DNA from: Candidatus Sericytochromatia bacterium | GTDB lineage: Bacteria > Cyanobacteriota > Sericytochromatia > S15B-MN24 > JAQBPE01 | Direction: 5' to 3' | Assembly (NCBI GenBank): GCA_036675505.1 | Contig: JAKFEW010000047.1 | Coordinates: 8,821 to 72,820 of the forward strand | DNA: 64,000 nt | The notes under the pieces: generated by a model | The model's input: the letters and a program-made list of their open reading frames with translations, nothing else | What the model was told of the DNA's origin: nothing | Databases searched by the model: none | Made by a program: the position numbers and the translations under genes | Shown: in pieces, positions 793 to 36,560 of the stretch | How positions within the stretch are numbered: the first letter of the stretch is position 1 | Layout: the number at the start of each line of letters is the position of its first letter

Positions 793-981
793 CTACGCTC
801 CGGTGCGGGTAGCCGTGCGATCGGCCAGCCACGCCTCTACCTGGGCCGGGACGTACATCCGGCGCCTGCCGACTTTCACGAACGGAAGATTGTACCGGCC
901 GGTGCACGCCCAGATATCGAGTGTGGCGCGTTTCACGCCGATCGCCTGAGCCGTCTCCTCTGCGCTCATCATTTTGAGCAT
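793..981 (-). CDS. AlpA/Xis-family excisionase-like HTH DNA-binding protein (62 aa)
   Basis: MLKMMSAEETAQAIGVKRATLDIWACTGRYNLPFVKVGRRRMYVPAQVEAWLADR resembles the prophage AlpA/excisionase HTH (MerR-like) domain. AGGAGG lies 6-8 nt upstream of the ATG at 981. The ORF-track upstream extension looks spurious. Confidence 0.7.
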   Translation of the reverse strand: MLKMMSAEETAQAIGVKRATLDIWACTGRYNLPFVKVGRRRMYVPAQVEAWLADRTATRTGA

Positions 982-1201
982 GGCTACTCCTCCTTGAAGC
1001 CGCGTGGGGCGGCGTGTACCGCACCTGCTTACGCCACCCTTAATGGGTTTGGGGTAATGCTGGTGGACAACAAGAAGGATAGGTAAAGCTGACTCACATA
1101 GGGAGGCTACCCCCTTAACTCTAGGGACAGGGCATTGGGGCCGCAAAAGCAAGACCCCACCCCGAAAATAAGGGGTGGGGTGCTTGCGAGGGCTTAACTT
1201 T

Positions 1202-1897
1202 TCAGTGCTCGAGTCGCTTCCGCCTCCTGTTCTTGTTCGGCTCTTTCTTGTAAACAACTCTCCAAAGGCGCTCCACATCGTGGGTCGCAGGCGCGCCCCC
1301 CGTTAAGGCCAGCAGGCGCTCGCGAAGAAACGCTTCTGTGTCGGACCTCTCGTGGTCCTCGTGGCTGGCTCGCCGGGCTATCGCTTCTGCGATCACGATC
1401 TCCTCGGGGGTCAGGGTAGGGCGCGGCGGTGGCGCGGCGGGCTGTTCAAATGTCGTCGCCTTGACGACCGGCCGGGCGCAAGGAAGGTACTTAGCCAGGG
1501 GCGCCGGGAACGGCGTGATCCCGATCGCCTCCACCCAGCGTGCGAGGTTGAGGCGGCTCACGTCCTCGTCCTCCTCGTCCCAGCCGGGCCGAGCTGCGCG
1601 CAGCGCAACGGCCGCGGGCGGGTCGCTCGACACGTACCCGTCGCGCACAGCTTCCCGGAGGTCGTCCCAAATGGGGCCGACGGCATCAGGAGCGGGGACG
1701 GTTGGTGCGTCGACCCGCTCCTCTACACCTTGGCATAGAAACAGGGCTTCGAAGAATGGAAGCCTGTCACCGGTCTCGTCGCGTGAACTGCGCATCGTCT
1801 CGAGGGCCGGCGCGATGCCAGCACGGTCGCCGCGCGCAAAGCGCCCCCAGCCGCGCGCGGCGCTGCTGTATTCCGCGGCTTGCTGCTCGCTGTCCAC
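1202..1897 (-). CDS. Hypothetical protein of the integrated element
   Basis: 231-aa ORF between the integrase and excisionase on the same strand. High GC3. No recognisable domain. Confidence 0.45.
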   Translation of the reverse strand: MDSEQQAAEYSSAARGWGRFARGDRAGIAPALETMRSSRDETGDRLPFFEALFLCQGVEERVDAPTVPAPDAVGPIWDDLREAVRDGYVSSDPPAAVALRAARPGWDEEDEDVSRLNLARWVEAIGITPFPAPLAKYLPCARPVVKATTFEQPAAPPPRPTLTPEEIVIAEAIARRASHEDHERSDTEAFLRERLLALTGGAPATHDVERLWRVVYKKEPNKNRRRKRLEH

Positions 1898-1900
1898 GTG

Positions 1901-3142
1901 CTACCTCCCCGCCTTGGCGCGCGGCCTGCCTGCCGCGGCCTTGGACACCGCGGCGGCAGCTACCGGGAGGGCGGCGATCTTGGCGGCGGCCAGATGGAGG
2001 GCCTGGTGAGCATCGCGCTTCGCGTCGCGCACCGGGTCGAGAGAGAGGCGCGCGTATACCGCCGTGGTGGCCTGGCTCTTGTGGTTCAGGGCCTTGCCTA
2101 CGACCGCCATGCTCGCGCCGCTGTCAACCATGAAACTGGCGAGCGAGCGGCGAAGGTCGTGGATGCGAAGGTCAGCGATGCCGGCTCGGTCAAGGATGCG
2201 CTGCCAGCCCGCCTTGGGGTCGGCCAGGTGGCCGGCGGCCCCGGTTCCCGGGAACACCCACGGAGAGGTGGAGGTGGCCTGCCGGCGCTGGAGGATGTCG
2301 AGCTCGGCGTTCTCCAGCGGGATGGTCTGGGCGGTGCCGTTCTTCGTGAGCGGGATGCGCCACGTGCGCCCCTCGATGTCGATCTCGTCCCAGCGCATCG
2401 CGAGCACGTTCGCCTTGCGCGCGCCGGTGTAGAGGCTCAGGAGCACGTAGTCGCGCATCGCCTCGCTGGGGTCCTCGGTCACGGCGGCCAGGAAGCGGGC
2501 GACTTCGTGCGGCATCAGCCGGCGCTCGCGGCTCTGCTCGGCGAACGCTTCGACGCCAGCCGCCGGGTTGGGGCCCTTCATCTGGCCCTTCTTGATCGCC
2601 TTGTTGAACACGGCGCGCACCAGCGCCAGCATCCGGTTGGCCGCGTACCGGCCGTGCTCCTCACCGACGCGCTGGTGAAGGGCCTCGACGTCGCGCCCGG
2701 CGATCTGGGAGGGCTTCCGGTTCACGAGCGGGCCCAGGTACGAGCGCACGAGCTTGCGGTACTCGATGATGGTCCGCTCGCCGCGGTCGCCGGACTTCTT
2801 CGGCTGGGCGAGGTACCATTCGCATAGCTCGCCGAAGGTCTTGGCTTGCCGCTCCTCGCGCCGCTGAGCGTTCGGGTCCTCGCCCTCTGCGATCTGATTG
2901 TTGAGCCCTTCGGCCTTCTTGCGGGCCTGCTCGATGGTCAGGTCGGGGTAGGTGCCCAGGCGGATCTGCTGCGGCCGGTCGTTGTACCACCGGTAGATGT
3001 AGAAGGACTTGGCGCCTCGGTCGGTCACGCGGATCGCGAGGCCCCGCACCTTGGCGTCGTACACGAAGTACCGCTTGCCGGCCTCGGCCGGCGGCAGGGT
3101 GTCGATGATCGCTTTGGTGAGGCTGCGTCGGTCCTGCGCCAT
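1901..3142 (-). CDS. int: P4-type tyrosine recombinase/integrase
   Basis: The N-terminal arm-binding region (KRYFVYDAKVRGLAIRVTDRGAKSFYIYRW) is DUF4102-like. The C-terminal catalytic region contains ...RIHDLRRS...HKSQATTAVYARL (conserved R..H..R..Y). The likely true start is M31 (MAQDRRS), which has a GGAGG RBS. The ORF-track start at 3232 has none. Confidence 0.85.
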   Translation of the reverse strand: MAQDRRSLTKAIIDTLPPAEAGKRYFVYDAKVRGLAIRVTDRGAKSFYIYRWYNDRPQQIRLGTYPDLTIEQARKKAEGLNNQIAEGEDPNAQRREERQAKTFGELCEWYLAQPKKSGDRGERTIIEYRKLVRSYLGPLVNRKPSQIAGRDVEALHQRVGEEHGRYAANRMLALVRAVFNKAIKKGQMKGPNPAAGVEAFAEQSRERRLMPHEVARFLAAVTEDPSEAMRDYVLLSLYTGARKANVLAMRWDEIDIEGRTWRIPLTKNGTAQTIPLENAELDILQRRQATSTSPWVFPGTGAAGHLADPKAGWQRILDRAGIADLRIHDLRRSLASFMVDSGASMAVVGKALNHKSQATTAVYARLSLDPVRDAKRDAHQALHLAAAKIAALPVAAAAVSKAAAGRPRAKAGR

Positions 3143-3320
3143 CTGAGACCTCCATTTCATATGCCCGGGGTTCGGGCATAGGCCGGGCATAGAAGATAGG
3201 TATATATGCGCAGTTTTACGAAACCCTGTCAACCTAGATAATTACTGCATATGCACTTTCTAGCAACCCTTCCCGGCATAGACTGAACTATACGATTCTA
3301 GGTGCGCCCACACACTTTTA

Positions 3321-3356
3321 ATCTGCGGGTCCCGGGTTCAAGTCCCGGCGCGCTCA
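3321..3356 (+). other. tRNA 3' fragment (variable-loop remnant, T-arm and acceptor 3' strand) = att core at the element junction (attR)
   Basis: The fragment reads ...ggtcccgggttcaagtcccggcgcgctcA. The T-stem is ccggg/cccgg, the T-loop is ttcaagt, the acceptor 3' strand is cgcgctc, and the discriminator is A. No matching 5' acceptor strand (gagcgcg) lies within 100 nt upstream, so this is a fragment and not a gene. Confidence 0.6.
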
Positions 3357-3367
3357 TAAGTGAAGAA

Positions 3368-3402
3368 GCCGCTTTCCAGGATTGCTGGAAGGCGGCCTTT
3401 TT
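3368..3402 (+). terminator. Rho-independent terminator immediately after the tRNA 3' fragment
   Basis: gccgctttcc-aggattgct-ggaaggcggc stem-loop with one G-U pair, followed by cTTTTTg. Confidence 0.6.
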
Positions 3403-3474
3403 GTTGGGGCATACACCGGGCATACAACGGGCGAGAGGTCTCGGCGCGCCGTCGTGGCCCGGAACATCACCTCA

Positions 3475-4035
3475 TCACGGATTCCAGAGGATTAGACGAT
3501 CTGGAAGACTCGTGAAAGCCACTTGGCCTTCACGGCCGATCGTGAGGTTGGCGATCCACCATGGGGCGGGCTGATTGGGCGTGGGGCACAACATCATCAG
3601 CTTGAAGCCGCTGGAACTGCCCACGTCCGGCTCTGACGCAATCAACGAATGGCGGGAGCCATCGGCCTGGAACCGCACGATAGCCGTCGCGTATGGGTTG
3701 CTCTCGCCGTGAGCGCCGTCGAGTGGGCCGGCTTCGGCGACGATTACTGGTCCACCGGGAACGCCGGAGAGCGCCATCGGGTTCGTCACCCGACGGCCGT
3801 GCTCCCATGGGCGGGGCGCTTGGTCTGGCACCACATACCAGAGCGCGTCGACTCGTGTTTCGACCCGCGCCTCGGATTCAGTCGTCGGCTCGGCCTCGCG
3901 GTGCTCGTCCTCCTCGATGGCCGCATCCTCGTCAGCTTTTTCCGGCTCCTCCCACTCGTCGAAGTAATTGAACCCGGAATCGACCAGTCCCACGACGAAT
4001 GCGGCTGTCGGCACATAGATCGTGACTGCATTCAT
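3475..4035 (-). CDS. Hypothetical protein
   Basis: 186-aa ORF with an acidic middle region. No recognisable domain. Confidence 0.4.
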   Translation of the reverse strand: MNAVTIYVPTAAFVVGLVDSGFNYFDEWEEPEKADEDAAIEEDEHREAEPTTESEARVETRVDALWYVVPDQAPRPWEHGRRVTNPMALSGVPGGPVIVAEAGPLDGAHGESNPYATAIVRFQADGSRHSLIASEPDVGSSSGFKLMMLCPTPNQPAPWWIANLTIGREGQVAFTSLPDRLILWNP

Positions 4036-29122: not shown

Positions 29123-29473
29123 ATGTCGACCAACACCAACCCACGCCCCCGGCGCGTAGCGCCTGAACCTGGTCTGACGGCGTCTCAGGCCGAGATGAGC
29201 GAGCGTGAGCCGTGCACGTTCGACGATCCGGCATCGGAGGCTCATGCCGAGGCCGCGATCGCCCAGGCGGACGCGGAATTGGCCGCCCGAAAGCCCAACG
29301 TCAACTTTCGTTGGGAAGCCGCGCCGCTTGACGTGGTTCGGCTCGCGGCCGAACTCGCGGGCGTCCCCTATCAGACCTGGATGAAGCAGGTGCTATACAA
29401 GGAGGCCGTCGCGGCCATCACGGCCGCCCGCGAGGTGGACCCCCGCGCCCGCAAGCTCGCCGGCGGCGGCTAA
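29123..29473 (+). CDS. brnA: BrnA-like antitoxin (DUF4415/RHH-like)
   Basis: RKPNVNFRWEAAPLDVVRLAAELAGVPYQTWMKQVLYKEAV matches the BrnA C-terminal signature (...isiRLpe.lle.lk.lA...gvpYQtlin..L.e...). GGGAGG RBS. It lies 12 nt after the brnT stop. Confidence 0.65.
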   Translation: MSTNTNPRPRRVAPEPGLTASQAEMSEREPCTFDDPASEAHAEAAIAQADAELAARKPNVNFRWEAAPLDVVRLAAELAGVPYQTWMKQVLYKEAVAAITAAREVDPRARKLAGGG

Positions 29474-34086: not shown

Positions 34087-35445
34087 TCAATCTCGCGCGA
34101 TGGGCAAGGTGAACCAGAAGGTGGCGCCACGGCCTTCCTGGGAATCCACGCCGATTTGCCCACTATGCGCCTCGACGAGATGCTTCGCGAGCACGAGCCC
34201 AATGCCTGCGCCGCCGACATCGCGCGTCGCGCTCATGTCGACCTGGGAGAACACCTGAAAGAGCTTCCCGAGCTCCTGCTCCGCGATGCCGACGCCCGTA
34301 TCCCGGACGTGAAACCGCACCATGTCGCCCTCGAGCGTCGCCCCGACGGTGATGGTCCCCGTCTCGAAGCTGAACTTGATGGCGTTGTCGACGAGGATCG
34401 CCAGCACCTGGGCGAGCCGCATCTCGTCGGCGAGCACCGGCGGCAGGTCCACAGGAACCTCGTTCTCGATGACGCGCCGCTGGGCCGCCTCCGCCACCTC
34501 GTCGAGCACCCGCTCCACGACCGGTACGACGACGACGGGCCGGGGGTCGACCGTGAACCGACCCGCCTGGACGCGCGAGAGGTCGAGCAGGTTCCCGACC
34601 AGGGCGAGCAGGCGCTCGCTGCTCGCGGCGGCCTTGGCGAGGAACTCCTGCTGCTTCGGCAGGAGCGGCCCCGCAATCTCGTCTTGGAGGATGCTGATGA
34701 ACCCCATGATGCCGTTGAGGGGCGTCCGCAGCTCGTGGGAGAGGACGCCCAGGAACTCGGTCTTCATCCGGTCCGCCTGCTGGAGCTCGGCGAGCTGCCG
34801 GAGGATGTCCGCCTCCATCTTCTTGCGCTGCGAGATGTCCGAGAAGGTGATGGCGAGACCGTTCGCCACCCGGATCACGAGCACGCGGAACCAGCGGGCG
34901 CTGTCCTCCCGCTCGTAGCGGTACTCGCCTTCGAAGGGCTCGCCGGTCCTCAACACGTGCAGGTACTCGGACCAGAGCCCCGCGTCGTGGATGTCGGGGT
35001 GGAGCTCGAGCAGGCGCTTCCCGGCGAGGCTGTCGAGCGCGTACAGGCGCTGGGCCGCCGGGTTCGTGAGCACGCACTCGAAGTCGACGACCTCGCCATC
35101 CGGGCCGGGGACCGAGCGGTAAACAAGCACGCCGTCGACCGAGGACTCCAGGACCCAGGCCAGGAGCATCTCCTTCTCATGCAACTCCAGCGTCTGTTGG
35201 TAGATGTCGAGCTGGAGGCGATCCACCCGGTCATCCGAGGCGTCCCGCTCGCCCTTCAGCCTCGCGATCGAGACGCGCTGGCCCGCCAGGGAGCCCGCCT
35301 GGCGCTCGATCGTCGCCTCCGCCGCGCCAAGGTCCGCGGCGCCCTGCTCCGCGGCCGCGATCAGACCATCACGCTCCCCTTCGAGGGAGTGGAGCGCGGC
35401 CTCGGTCGAAGGATCGGGGTTCCCGTCGGGCTCGAGGGTGGTCAT
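34087..35445 (-). CDS. PAS-domain sensor histidine kinase (orphan)
   Basis: H-box FLGVLSHELRTPLNGIMGF. N/G1/G2 ATPase motifs (LVDNAIKFS, DTGVGI, GGAGIGLVLAKHLV). A PAS-like segment and an N-terminal coiled coil. Its ATG overlaps the stop of the upstream GNAT remnant (ATGA). Confidence 0.85.
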   Translation of the reverse strand: MTTLEPDGNPDPSTEAALHSLEGERDGLIAAAEQGAADLGAAEATIERQAGSLAGQRVSIARLKGERDASDDRVDRLQLDIYQQTLELHEKEMLLAWVLESSVDGVLVYRSVPGPDGEVVDFECVLTNPAAQRLYALDSLAGKRLLELHPDIHDAGLWSEYLHVLRTGEPFEGEYRYEREDSARWFRVLVIRVANGLAITFSDISQRKKMEADILRQLAELQQADRMKTEFLGVLSHELRTPLNGIMGFISILQDEIAGPLLPKQQEFLAKAAASSERLLALVGNLLDLSRVQAGRFTVDPRPVVVVPVVERVLDEVAEAAQRRVIENEVPVDLPPVLADEMRLAQVLAILVDNAIKFSFETGTITVGATLEGDMVRFHVRDTGVGIAEQELGKLFQVFSQVDMSATRDVGGAGIGLVLAKHLVEAHSGQIGVDSQEGRGATFWFTLPIARD

Positions 35446-35852
35446 GCGGGCATCGTAGCATGAGGCCAACCCCGCCCAAACCCTCTGTTCGCCGCTGGGC
35501 CTGGAGCCGGCCGGTTGTGCCCACGCCCGTGGCGGAGCGGTCGCGGCCGGGCGGCCGACTCGCCTTCCAGGGCGGGCAGCGGGAAGAACCCGTAGCGGTC
35601 ATACCAGGCCACCGCCGGAGGCTTGGCGTCGACGACGATGCCCACGCATCCCACTGCGTCGGCCTGCGTCAACGCGAGATGGATCACCGCATGCAGCAAC
35701 GTACTACCGATCCCTCGCCCTTGGGCGGCCTTGCCGATATGGTGGCGAAACTGGTTCTGGCCGGCGTATTTGAGGAAGAAGCGGTCGAGATCGGCATCGC
35801 CGCTCGTGAAGGCGGTGCGGTGGTCCTGTTCTCGGAGTGCCCTAACTTCCAT
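35442..35852 (-). pseudogene. TacT/AtaT-like GNAT toxin remnant with a ~50-aa internal deletion and a run-on C-terminus
   Basis: It aligns to Salmonella TacT in two blocks. HRTAFTSGDADLDRFFLKYAGQN matches [23 protein letters not shown], and HAVIHLALTQADAVGCVGIVVDAKPPAVAWYDRYGFFPL matches [40 protein letters not shown]. The ~50 residues between them, which span the central beta-strands, are missing. The last ~45 codons read through into the HK promoter region. Confidence 0.5.
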
Positions 35853-35958
35853 GCCGCTTCATCAAGGCTCGCAACGCCGGCGTCGGCTGCGGCGCTTCCA
35901 TCTGCTGCAACATCGCTTCCGCCGCCTCCGAAACACGGGCGTTGATTTGCACAGCCAT
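35842..35958 (-). CDS. Truncated RHH/DUF1778-like (TacA-like) antitoxin remnant (38 aa)
   Basis: MAVQINARVSEAAEAMLQQ... matches the TacA N-terminus (VQLNLRAKESQRALIDAAAE). GAGGTGA RBS. It overlaps the toxin ATG by 11 nt. It is below the ORF-track size cutoff. Confidence 0.4.
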   Translation of the reverse strand: MAVQINARVSEAAEAMLQQMEAPQPTPALRALMKRHGS

Positions 35959-36065
35959 CGCCAATCACCTCACCAGGAGGGCGAGCACGCCTCATAGCCC
36001 TGGCGATGATGATGGGTGTTCATGGTAACGTGGGGCCGTCGCCCCCGCATCCAGGAGCCTTCAGC

Positions 36066-36560
36066 ATGTCACCCGACGACACCCTCACCACGCCCGTCCA
36101 GTCCTCCCTCGCCCGCCTGATCGGGGAGTGGGTCGGCACGACAAGCACCCGCTTCATGCCCACGGACGCGTTCGAAACCTGCGAGGTGAAGGCGAGCATG
36201 CGCTGGGTGGCGAACGGCACGTTCGTCCTCCACGAGTACGACGGGCGCTTCAACGGTGAGGAAGCTCAAGGCGCGGCCTTCTACGGCATCGACCCCGAGA
36301 GCGGGGAAGGCTCGGCGGCCTGGGTCGACAGCTTCCACTCGAGCGCCGCCCCGATGCTCTCGAAGGGCCAGGCCGCGCCCGGCGAGATCCTGAACGTGAC
36401 GACGACCTACGGGGACCCGGCCGAGCCGTGGGGCTGGCAGACCGTCATCACCGAGCAGGGGCCGGACGCGATCATGATCGAGGCCTACAACATCCCGTTC
36501 GGCCGCGAGCGCTACGTCGCGATCGAAACCAAGCTCCGGCGCGCGTCCGCGCGGGCCTGA
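36066..36560 (+). CDS. DUF1579-like hypothetical protein
   Basis: 164 aa. The pattern (GEWVGTTSTRF...FETCEVKASMRWVANGTFVLHEYDG...) matches DUF1579-family proteins by recollection only. Confidence 0.4.
   Translation: MSPDDTLTTPVQSSLARLIGEWVGTTSTRFMPTDAFETCEVKASMRWVANGTFVLHEYDGRFNGEEAQGAAFYGIDPESGEGSAAWVDSFHSSAAPMLSKGQAAPGEILNVTTTYGDPAEPWGWQTVITEQGPDAIMIEAYNIPFGRERYVAIETKLRRASARA

Follow-up and report, generated by a model that had tools for sequence, protein, structure and literature searches.

The question raised by positions 35442–35958 of the window (by which we mean the whole 64,000-nucleotide stretch of contig JAKFEW010000047.1, from a Candidatus Sericytochromatia bacterium) is whether two short, overlapping genes there still make up a toxin-antitoxin (TA) system. 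One is a 136-aa open reading frame (ORF) related to GNAT toxins, and the other is a 38-aa ORF related to their ribbon-helix-helix (RHH) antitoxins. The original prediction, made from the sequence alone, described a TacAT-like pair of this kind with internal deletions in both genes, and alignment to intact relatives bears this out. We consider it highly probable (about 0.88) that the locus is a non-functional, recently eroded chromosomal type II TA cassette of the GNAT-toxin/RHH-antitoxin (TacAT, AtaRT, KacAT) kind. Loss of the promoter and operator and loss of the toxin's 3′ end are two further lesions that had gone unnoticed in the original prediction.

Toxin and antitoxin remnants

A protein database search with the 136-aa ORF returned 1669 homologues at E ≤ 1e-3. 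The closest intact toxin, P0002 on locus L003 (171 aa), matches the window at 35535–35852 with E = 1.8e-49 (tblastn) and is 83% identical at the protein level over the retained parts. The two remnant ORFs lie on the minus strand at the positions originally given, and their parts are as follows.

35442–35852, minus strand: 136-aa toxin remnant ORF, as given in the ORF list
35733–35852, minus strand: toxin N-terminal block, codons 1–40 (β1, α1 and α2 of the GNAT toxin), from alignment and model
35727–35741, minus strand: toxin deletion junction CAT ATC GGC AAG GCC (HIG/KA), 153 bp or 51 codons missing
35535–35732, minus strand: toxin C-terminal block, codons 41–106, from alignment, the TacT3 match and model
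35442–35534, minus strand: non-homologous read-through tail, 30 codons plus stop, which replaces the last ~14 toxin codons
35842–35958, minus strand: 38-aa antitoxin remnant ORF, ATG at 35958 and stop TAG at 35842–35844
35926–35958, minus strand: antitoxin N-terminal block, codons 1–11 (MAVQINARVSE), from the family alignment consensus and codon comparison
35908–35928, minus strand: antitoxin deletion junction TCG GAG GCG GCG GAA GCG ATG TTG, 150 bp missing
35845–35922, minus strand: antitoxin C-terminal block, codons 13–38 (AEAMLQQMEAPQPTPALRALMKRHGS), from tblastn and Pfam TacA1
35968–35974, minus strand: Shine-Dalgarno-like remnant GGTGAGG; homology to intact cassettes begins about here

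Similarity of the 136-aa ORF to TacT had been proposed to fall into separate N- and C-terminal blocks, and this is what we found. When PDB sequences were searched with phmmer, the ORF matched Salmonella TacT3 (6g96; 3.2e-6) in two blocks, with ORF residues 6–35 corresponding to TacT3 12–41 and residues 38–92 to TacT3 97–152; the 55 TacT3 residues in between (42–96) are skipped. Alignment to its own subfamily places the gap between G40 and K41 at exactly 51 residues, in frame. The Pfam family Acetyltransf_10 matches residues 39–91 only (4.5e-6), and an NCBIfam search gave nothing useful. Homology to the toxin family ends after L106 (...ARPRPL), beyond which come 30 unrelated codons. The 14 residues that follow FFPL (PALEGESAARPRPL) are still homologous to the family, whereas the last ~14 residues of the family, with the near-invariant MFLPL strand among them, are lost. 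A frameshift at the toxin's 3′ end was considered and rejected: neither of the other two frames of 35442–35540 gives MFLPL..IRAA, and the toxin end is therefore truly lost.

What remains of the toxin includes the acetyl-CoA pyrophosphate loop QGRGIG (residues 44–49; motif Q/R-x-x-G-x-G/A), α3, β5, α4 and PALEGESAARPRPL, together with the conserved tyrosine, Y84 in AWYDRYGF; both the loop and the tyrosine motif align with those of AtaT, KacT and TacT3. The catalytic role of this tyrosine we take from general knowledge together with the PDB mutant entries AtaT Y144F and KacT Y145F. Mapped on an AlphaFold2 model of the intact L003 toxin (mean predicted local distance difference test score, pLDDT, 89.8), the internal deletion removes β2 (41–47), β3 (50–62) and β4 (80–90), and the 3′ loss removes β7 (157–162) and the last helix (α5). 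The GNAT core (β1–β7 with α1–α4) is incomplete in the 136-aa ORF, whose own model is poor (pLDDT 63, predicted TM-score 0.43); on these models, the ORF is predicted to be incapable of forming the GNAT sheet.

The 119 best toxin homologues of the 1669, the ORF's own exact copy aside, are 166–230 aa long, mostly 171–175. Among PDB sequences the intact relative matches TacT3 at 1.5e-21, KacT at 1.8e-11, AtaT at 2e-9 and TacT at 8e-9. When its model was compared with PDB structures by Foldseek, the top 38 fold matches were all TA GNAT toxins (TacT1–3, AtaT, AtaT2, KacT, GmvT and an entry that bears just the title "bacterial toxin"), led by TacT3 (E = 3.5e-15, TM-score ~0.8, 34% identity), and generic GNATs appeared only after the E-value had jumped by three orders of magnitude, to 3e-7. 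GNAT/DUF1778 pairs have been described as a single TA clade, and the tRNA-acetylating GNAT toxins as a group (PMC9177977). On the sequence matches and the top fold matches, the family is a true member of that group; the significant GNAT-toxin similarity expected under the original prediction was seen both in PDB sequences and in the fold. At L003 the intact TacAT-like pair is followed by a convergent HEPN-domain gene (847–1515, minus strand), so that a second TA-type module lies adjacent to it.

The antitoxin remnant retains both ends of its ancestor. The 38-aa ORF joins family residues 1–11 (MAVQINARVSE) through a single alanine to the final 26 (AEAMLQQMEAPQPTPALRALMKRHGS), and compared with an 88-aa antitoxin it lacks 50 residues (150 bp, in frame). 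It had originally been thought to match only the N-terminal ~20 residues of the antitoxin, which is not the case, as 11 residues of one terminus and 26 of the other are kept. An in-frame TTG at 35964 would give a 40-aa version of the ORF (35842–35964). The removed stretch, TK.LLERESRATGIKKEFLVEEALLHHFQAL..., comprises the RHH helices α1 and α2 and the linker, leaving only the β-strand MAVQINARVSE, identical to the family consensus, of a DNA-binding domain that is no longer intact. The C-terminal block is 85% identical to the antitoxin of L003 (tblastn, E = 2e-10) and corresponds to the toxin-binding tail of TacA-type antitoxins. The L003 antitoxin is 90 aa long and overlaps its toxin by 11 nt; the same 11-nt overlap occurs in the window and in the intact L089 and L091 cassettes, in keeping with the TA gene architecture originally recognized at this locus.

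As to the DUF1778 identity proposed for the antitoxin, 22 of 32 intact relatives match Pfam TacA1/DUF1778 (best E = 2.9e-6), and the remnant itself stays below threshold (PF08681, E = 0.031; score 14.7 bits, cut-off 21), with its match in the C-terminal part of the profile (positions 53–79 of 80). Taken by itself the assignment of the remnant is weak, and it depends on the intact relatives. A profile of the antitoxin family searched against the PDB retrieved no TacA, AtaR or KacA, and only generic RHH proteins at E ≥ 0.06. Lengths of 86–94 aa were found for all 32 antitoxin homologues, with none shorter than 86. Intact homologues of ~136 and ~38 aa would have spoken against the original prediction; those listed here are 166–230 aa (toxin) and 86–94 aa (antitoxin).

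Deletion junctions, promoter and read-through tail

In the intact toxin gene of L003, the 153 bp that the window lacks are bounded on either side by a copy of the 8-mer CGTCGGCA; the two edges read CAC GTC GGC ACG and GCC GTC GGC AAG, and the window reads CAT ATC GGC AAG. The edges of the antitoxin deletion are marked in intact relatives by an imperfect direct repeat encoding SE-TK-AML-E and AE-TAE-AML-Q, and in L089 CTGCTCGAG lies on both sides of them. The presence of short direct repeats at both junctions in intact relatives suggests that the deletions arose by replication slippage or illegitimate recombination, processes that characteristically leave such a pattern. Degenerate DNA searches of JGI metagenomes for the junction peptides of both genes returned zero matches. 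The two internal deletions are near-equal in length (153 and 150 bp) and both in frame, for which repeat spacing and chance are the only explanation that we found.

Three intact cassettes (L003, L089 and L091) share a TTGACA −35 element, a TCTAGA-N4-TCTAGA palindrome over the −10 and an AGGAGG ribosome-binding site. Their promoter has the layout TTGACA-17-AATAAT, and promoter and palindrome are located at 311–344 in L003, ~3700–3735 in L089 and ~1075–1105 in L091. The palindrome is likely the operator of the RHH antitoxin. Both the TTGACA −35 element and the TCTAGA-N4-TCTAGA operator are absent upstream of the remnant, and a promoter scan, which covers sigma-70-type consensus sites only, detected no sigma-70-like site in 35300–36200.

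At the other end of the remnant, the toxin frame runs on into the promoter region of the neighboring histidine-kinase gene. The features on this side and the genes that flank the remnant are the following.

35497–35534, minus strand: 38 nt separating the last toxin-homologous codon from the native spacer, with no alignment above shuffled controls
35445–35496, minus strand: native spacer in front of the histidine-kinase gene, with the L084 spacer as its homologue
35452–35460, minus strand: extended −10-like element TGCTACGAT, 6 nt upstream of the kinase ATG
34087–35445, minus strand: flanking PAS/HisKA/HATPase histidine kinase, 452 aa (Pfam)
36066–36560, plus strand: flanking DUF1579 protein, 164 aa, divergent from the remnant (Pfam)

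The frame had been predicted to run about 45 codons into the promoter of the next gene; the read-through itself stands, but it is 30 codons long (35442–35534). G+C by codon position in the tail is 0.74/0.74/0.61, against 0.73/0.40/0.92 in the kinase gene, and this composition is not coding-like. Positions 35445–35496 are ~75% identical to the spacer upstream of the kinase gene in L084, the locus of the closest relative found, with the match ending in a perfect 18-mer, TGCTACGATGCCCGCATG. The 38 nt at 35497–35534 gave nothing above shuffled controls when compared with cassette 3′ ends, flanks or the L084 spacer. Only the rarity of stop codons at 69% G+C, the value for the window, keeps the 136-aa ORF open; from base composition, we estimate that a stop-free run of 30 codons has roughly a 50% chance. 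The TGA stop of the ORF is made by the ATG-ACC of the kinase gene, where L084 has ATG-GCC.

A −10-like element is found 6–8 nt before the kinase ATG in all five orthologue loci examined, despite their differing upstream genes. It reads TGYTACGAT in L084–L087 (at 2573–2581 in L084) and takes the weaker form TGTTATGAT in L088. Because the element precedes the ATG of kinase orthologues that have different genes upstream, TGCTACGAT belongs to the kinase gene and not to the remnant, and it may serve as the extended −10 of a promoter that gives the kinase a leaderless mRNA.

Insertion site, age and stages of decay

The remnant stands alone in the short spacer between the DUF1579 gene and the histidine-kinase gene. 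In L084, whose kinase is 82% identical to that of the window, these two genes are adjacent (1991–3955), with a 90-bp spacer and no TA sequence between them, and we regard L084 as the empty site. Beyond the DUF1579-kinase pair the genes of L084 differ from those of the window and include BlaI/BlaR-like genes. Parsimony favors insertion in the lineage of the window rather than loss in L084. Other kinase orthologues (L085–L088, 65–77% identity) are non-syntenic, carry no TA genes and are uninformative for polarity, and a GTDB genome scan with the kinase as query gave a best match of 47% identity, in Cyanobacteria bacterium UBA8530, which is too distant for synteny. The sole candidate for a target-site duplication, the 10-nt direct repeat CCACGCCCGT at 35521 and 36088, was rejected because one of its copies falls within the conserved coding region of DUF1579 and chance alone would yield ~0.9 repeats of this kind. 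The G+C content at third codon positions (GC3) is 0.78 in the toxin and 0.73 in the antitoxin, compared to 0.92 in the kinase, and this contrast fits a foreign origin of the cassette.

The original prediction further held that the pair belonged to an island that once carried several addiction modules, among them a brnTA remnant. This was not established: the TA remnant is alone, its flanking genes are adjacent in L084, and we found no evidence that it forms part of a larger island. At 29123–29473 on the plus strand, 6 kb away, there is a BrnA/CopG_antitoxin-like C-terminus (NVNFRWEAAPLDVVRLAAELAGVPYQTWMKQVL; E = 3.7e-4) that falls below the Pfam cut-off, and no DUF497/BrnT was detected in the three ORFs scanned upstream of it. 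The region at 26–33 kb has a lower G+C content (0.59–0.66) and several ORFs without a Pfam match. Intact cassettes of the subfamily (L003, L089, L091) sit in unrelated contexts without mobile-element genes, and TA "islets" without mobile-element genes have been reported in a survey of Photorhabdus (PMC13617665).

The retained parts of the remnant show no damage at conserved positions. Of 65 columns that are at least 90% conserved in the toxin family, 21 lie in the internal deletion and three (the MFL motif) in the replaced C-terminal end; the remaining 41 all match the consensus, and in this respect the remnant is not inferior to intact members. Relative to L003, the ratio of non-synonymous to synonymous substitution rates (dN/dS) comes to 0.10 in the toxin and 0.14 in the antitoxin, at a dS of about 0.7–0.8. 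The lack of damage at conserved positions and the low dN/dS suggest that inactivation was recent relative to the divergence from L003.

Other shortened toxins indicate how such a state may be reached. A scan of 1.84 billion representative proteins found further short homologues that span both blocks (P0274, P0295, P0306, P0323, P0327, P0329, P0367 and others); variants of this kind are over-represented among cluster representatives, so that their share there is not a frequency. Each has different breakpoints and none has HHIG/KAAQG, which points to recurrent decay rather than a compact variant. At the P0274 and P0367 (L094) loci, a deleted toxin is accompanied by an antitoxin of intact length, and these loci represent an earlier stage of the same decay. 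In the Photorhabdus survey, toxin truncation was common in chromosomes, and toxin inactivation preceded antitoxin loss in a two-step decay (PMC13617665). Another of the shortened toxins, the 108-aa P0295, recurs without any difference on 23 or more contigs from many samples (L092 1774–2827; also L093). Where an 88-aa antitoxin would be expected, a 252-aa ORF lies in front of it. The C-terminus of this ORF (…LIDEAPGPNEAMLELFR) resembles the antitoxin tail motif, and it may be a fused or replaced antitoxin.

The history of the locus may then have run as follows. In the ancestor, an 88-aa antitoxin gene would have shared 11 nt with a ~171-aa toxin gene, the pair being transcribed from a TTGACA/−10 promoter with its −10 covered by the TCTAGA-N4-TCTAGA palindrome, as seen in the three intact relatives. 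By analogy with the family, the toxin would have acetylated aminoacyl-tRNA and thereby blocked translation, with the C-terminal tail of the antitoxin plugging the toxin and its RHH domain repressing the operon at the palindrome. What landed in the ~90-bp spacer between the DUF1579 and histidine-kinase genes would have been this cassette, whole or in part. The toxin gene has lost 153 bp in frame between short direct repeats (CGTCGGCA in L003), taking out β2–β4, and the antitoxin gene 150 bp in frame between imperfect intragenic repeats, taking out α1, α2 and the linker. The last ~14 codons of the toxin (β7 and the terminal helix) and the promoter and operator are also gone. TA logic and the two sister loci suggest that the toxin was inactivated before the antitoxin.

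Competing readings and what the locus means

Several observations weigh against our explanation of the locus. Both deletions are in frame, both ORFs are open, the 11-nt overlap and the Shine-Dalgarno-like motif persist, and the conserved residues that remain are undamaged; these features could be read as the result of continued selection, although recency explains them equally well. A transcript might also read through from an unrecognized promoter. The closest intact relative is only 83% identical, and the repeats at the ancestral junctions are reconstructed from relatives rather than observed. The link of the antitoxin to DUF1778/TacA is weak by sequence, with most matches under the Pfam threshold, and the direction of change (insertion here versus precise loss in L084) depends on one relative. 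One rival reading is that the 38-aa peptide might still neutralize a related TacT-like toxin elsewhere in the genome or on an incoming mobile element, as an anti-addiction or orphan antitoxin. Its 26 C-terminal residues are intact and match the family consensus, its deletion is in frame, its Shine-Dalgarno-like motif is kept, and PDB entries 7ak8, 7ak9, 6gtq, 6gtr and 9ils are titled as toxins with C-terminal antitoxin fragments alone, which indicates that such a fragment can bind; anti-addiction roles have also been discussed (PMC13617665). Set against this are the loss of the cassette promoter and operator with no sigma-70-like promoter detected, the lack of a second TacT-like gene within the 64-kb window, an antitoxin GC3 of 0.73 compared to about 0.92 for host genes, a junction without any other example in the JGI metagenome search, and the fact that recency accounts for the lack of substitutions; we regard this reading as unlikely. 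In a variant of it the peptide is expressed, for example from transcripts that start in the divergent promoter region and read through, and serves as a minimal orphan antitoxin, free of regulation, that guards the cell from addiction to incoming TacT-like cassettes; the in-frame deletions would themselves have been selected. This variant seems to us slightly less likely again.

That the pair is instead a naturally compact, functional GNAT/RHH variant, with a 136-aa enzyme and a 38-aa partner, is very improbable. In its favor, both frames are open and overlap in the manner of functional pairs, the QGRGIG loop and conserved tyrosine are kept, and several other short homologues exist in the library of 1.84 billion proteins; but those homologues differ in their breakpoints and share no conserved compact architecture, no antitoxin homologue is under 86 aa, three central β-strands and β7 are missing from a protein that models poorly, and its C-terminal 30 residues are translated promoter DNA of non-coding composition. 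This possibility is already largely refuted. Least credible of all is an assembly or binning artefact that hides intact genes in the real genome. The source is metagenomic or uncultured, and both missing pieces are ~150 bp, near a common read length. However, across the locus Logan assemblies of two separate runs (SRR17380409 and SRR17380414) match the window with 100% identity, and the 136-aa protein is also recorded from an NCBI source. Furthermore, no junction repeat exceeds 9 nt, and repeats of that length could not collapse a de Bruijn graph; repeat collapse could not produce the loss of the promoter or of the toxin's 3′ end.

As an eroded TA cassette, the locus can be compared to several characterized systems. 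Salmonella TacAT3 (TacT3/TacA3; PDB 6g96, 7ak9) is the best match of the intact relatives in both sequence and structure, and like the window it has a small antitoxin gene upstream of a GNAT toxin. Unlike TacAT3, the window toxin has no equivalent of TacT3 42–96 or of the C-terminal strand, the window antitoxin has no RHH helices, the promoter and operator are missing, and the antitoxin of the subfamily is only weakly DUF1778-like. E. coli AtaRT and Klebsiella KacAT (PDB 6ajm, 6gts, 5zgn, 5xun) share the fold class and TA architecture, and the tyrosine and acetyl-CoA loop of AtaT and KacT correspond to Y84 (AWY) and QGRGIG of the window; identity to them is only 22–29%, however, and they are complete systems with toxicity shown by experiment, where the window has a fragment. 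The closest parallel in mode of decay is provided by the eroded TA systems of Photorhabdus, with their large toxin truncations or deletions, loss by deletion or pseudogenization and inactivation of the toxin first (PMC13617665). In contrast to these, the window comes from a high-GC bacterium not in culture, the nearest named relatives of which carry the label unclassified Cyanobacteriota, and both TA genes carry in-frame, repeat-flanked deletions of ~150 bp that leave two tidy ORFs acceptable to a gene caller.

The main value of the finding lies in annotation. NCBI and Logan sources list the 136-aa ORF as a protein with GNAT Pfam matches, and it is probably annotated as an acetyltransferase in spite of being a pseudogene; it should be counted neither as an acetyltransferase nor as part of a functional TA system. 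In itself the locus is an ordinary example of the erosion of selfish modules in bacterial chromosomes and opens no new question. It is also a clean, datable snapshot of late-stage TA erosion, in which repeat-flanked deletions and promoter loss are seen without point-mutation decay and alongside an empty site. Together with the sister loci that are deleted in the toxin only, it illustrates the model of decay in which the toxin goes first and the antitoxin later.

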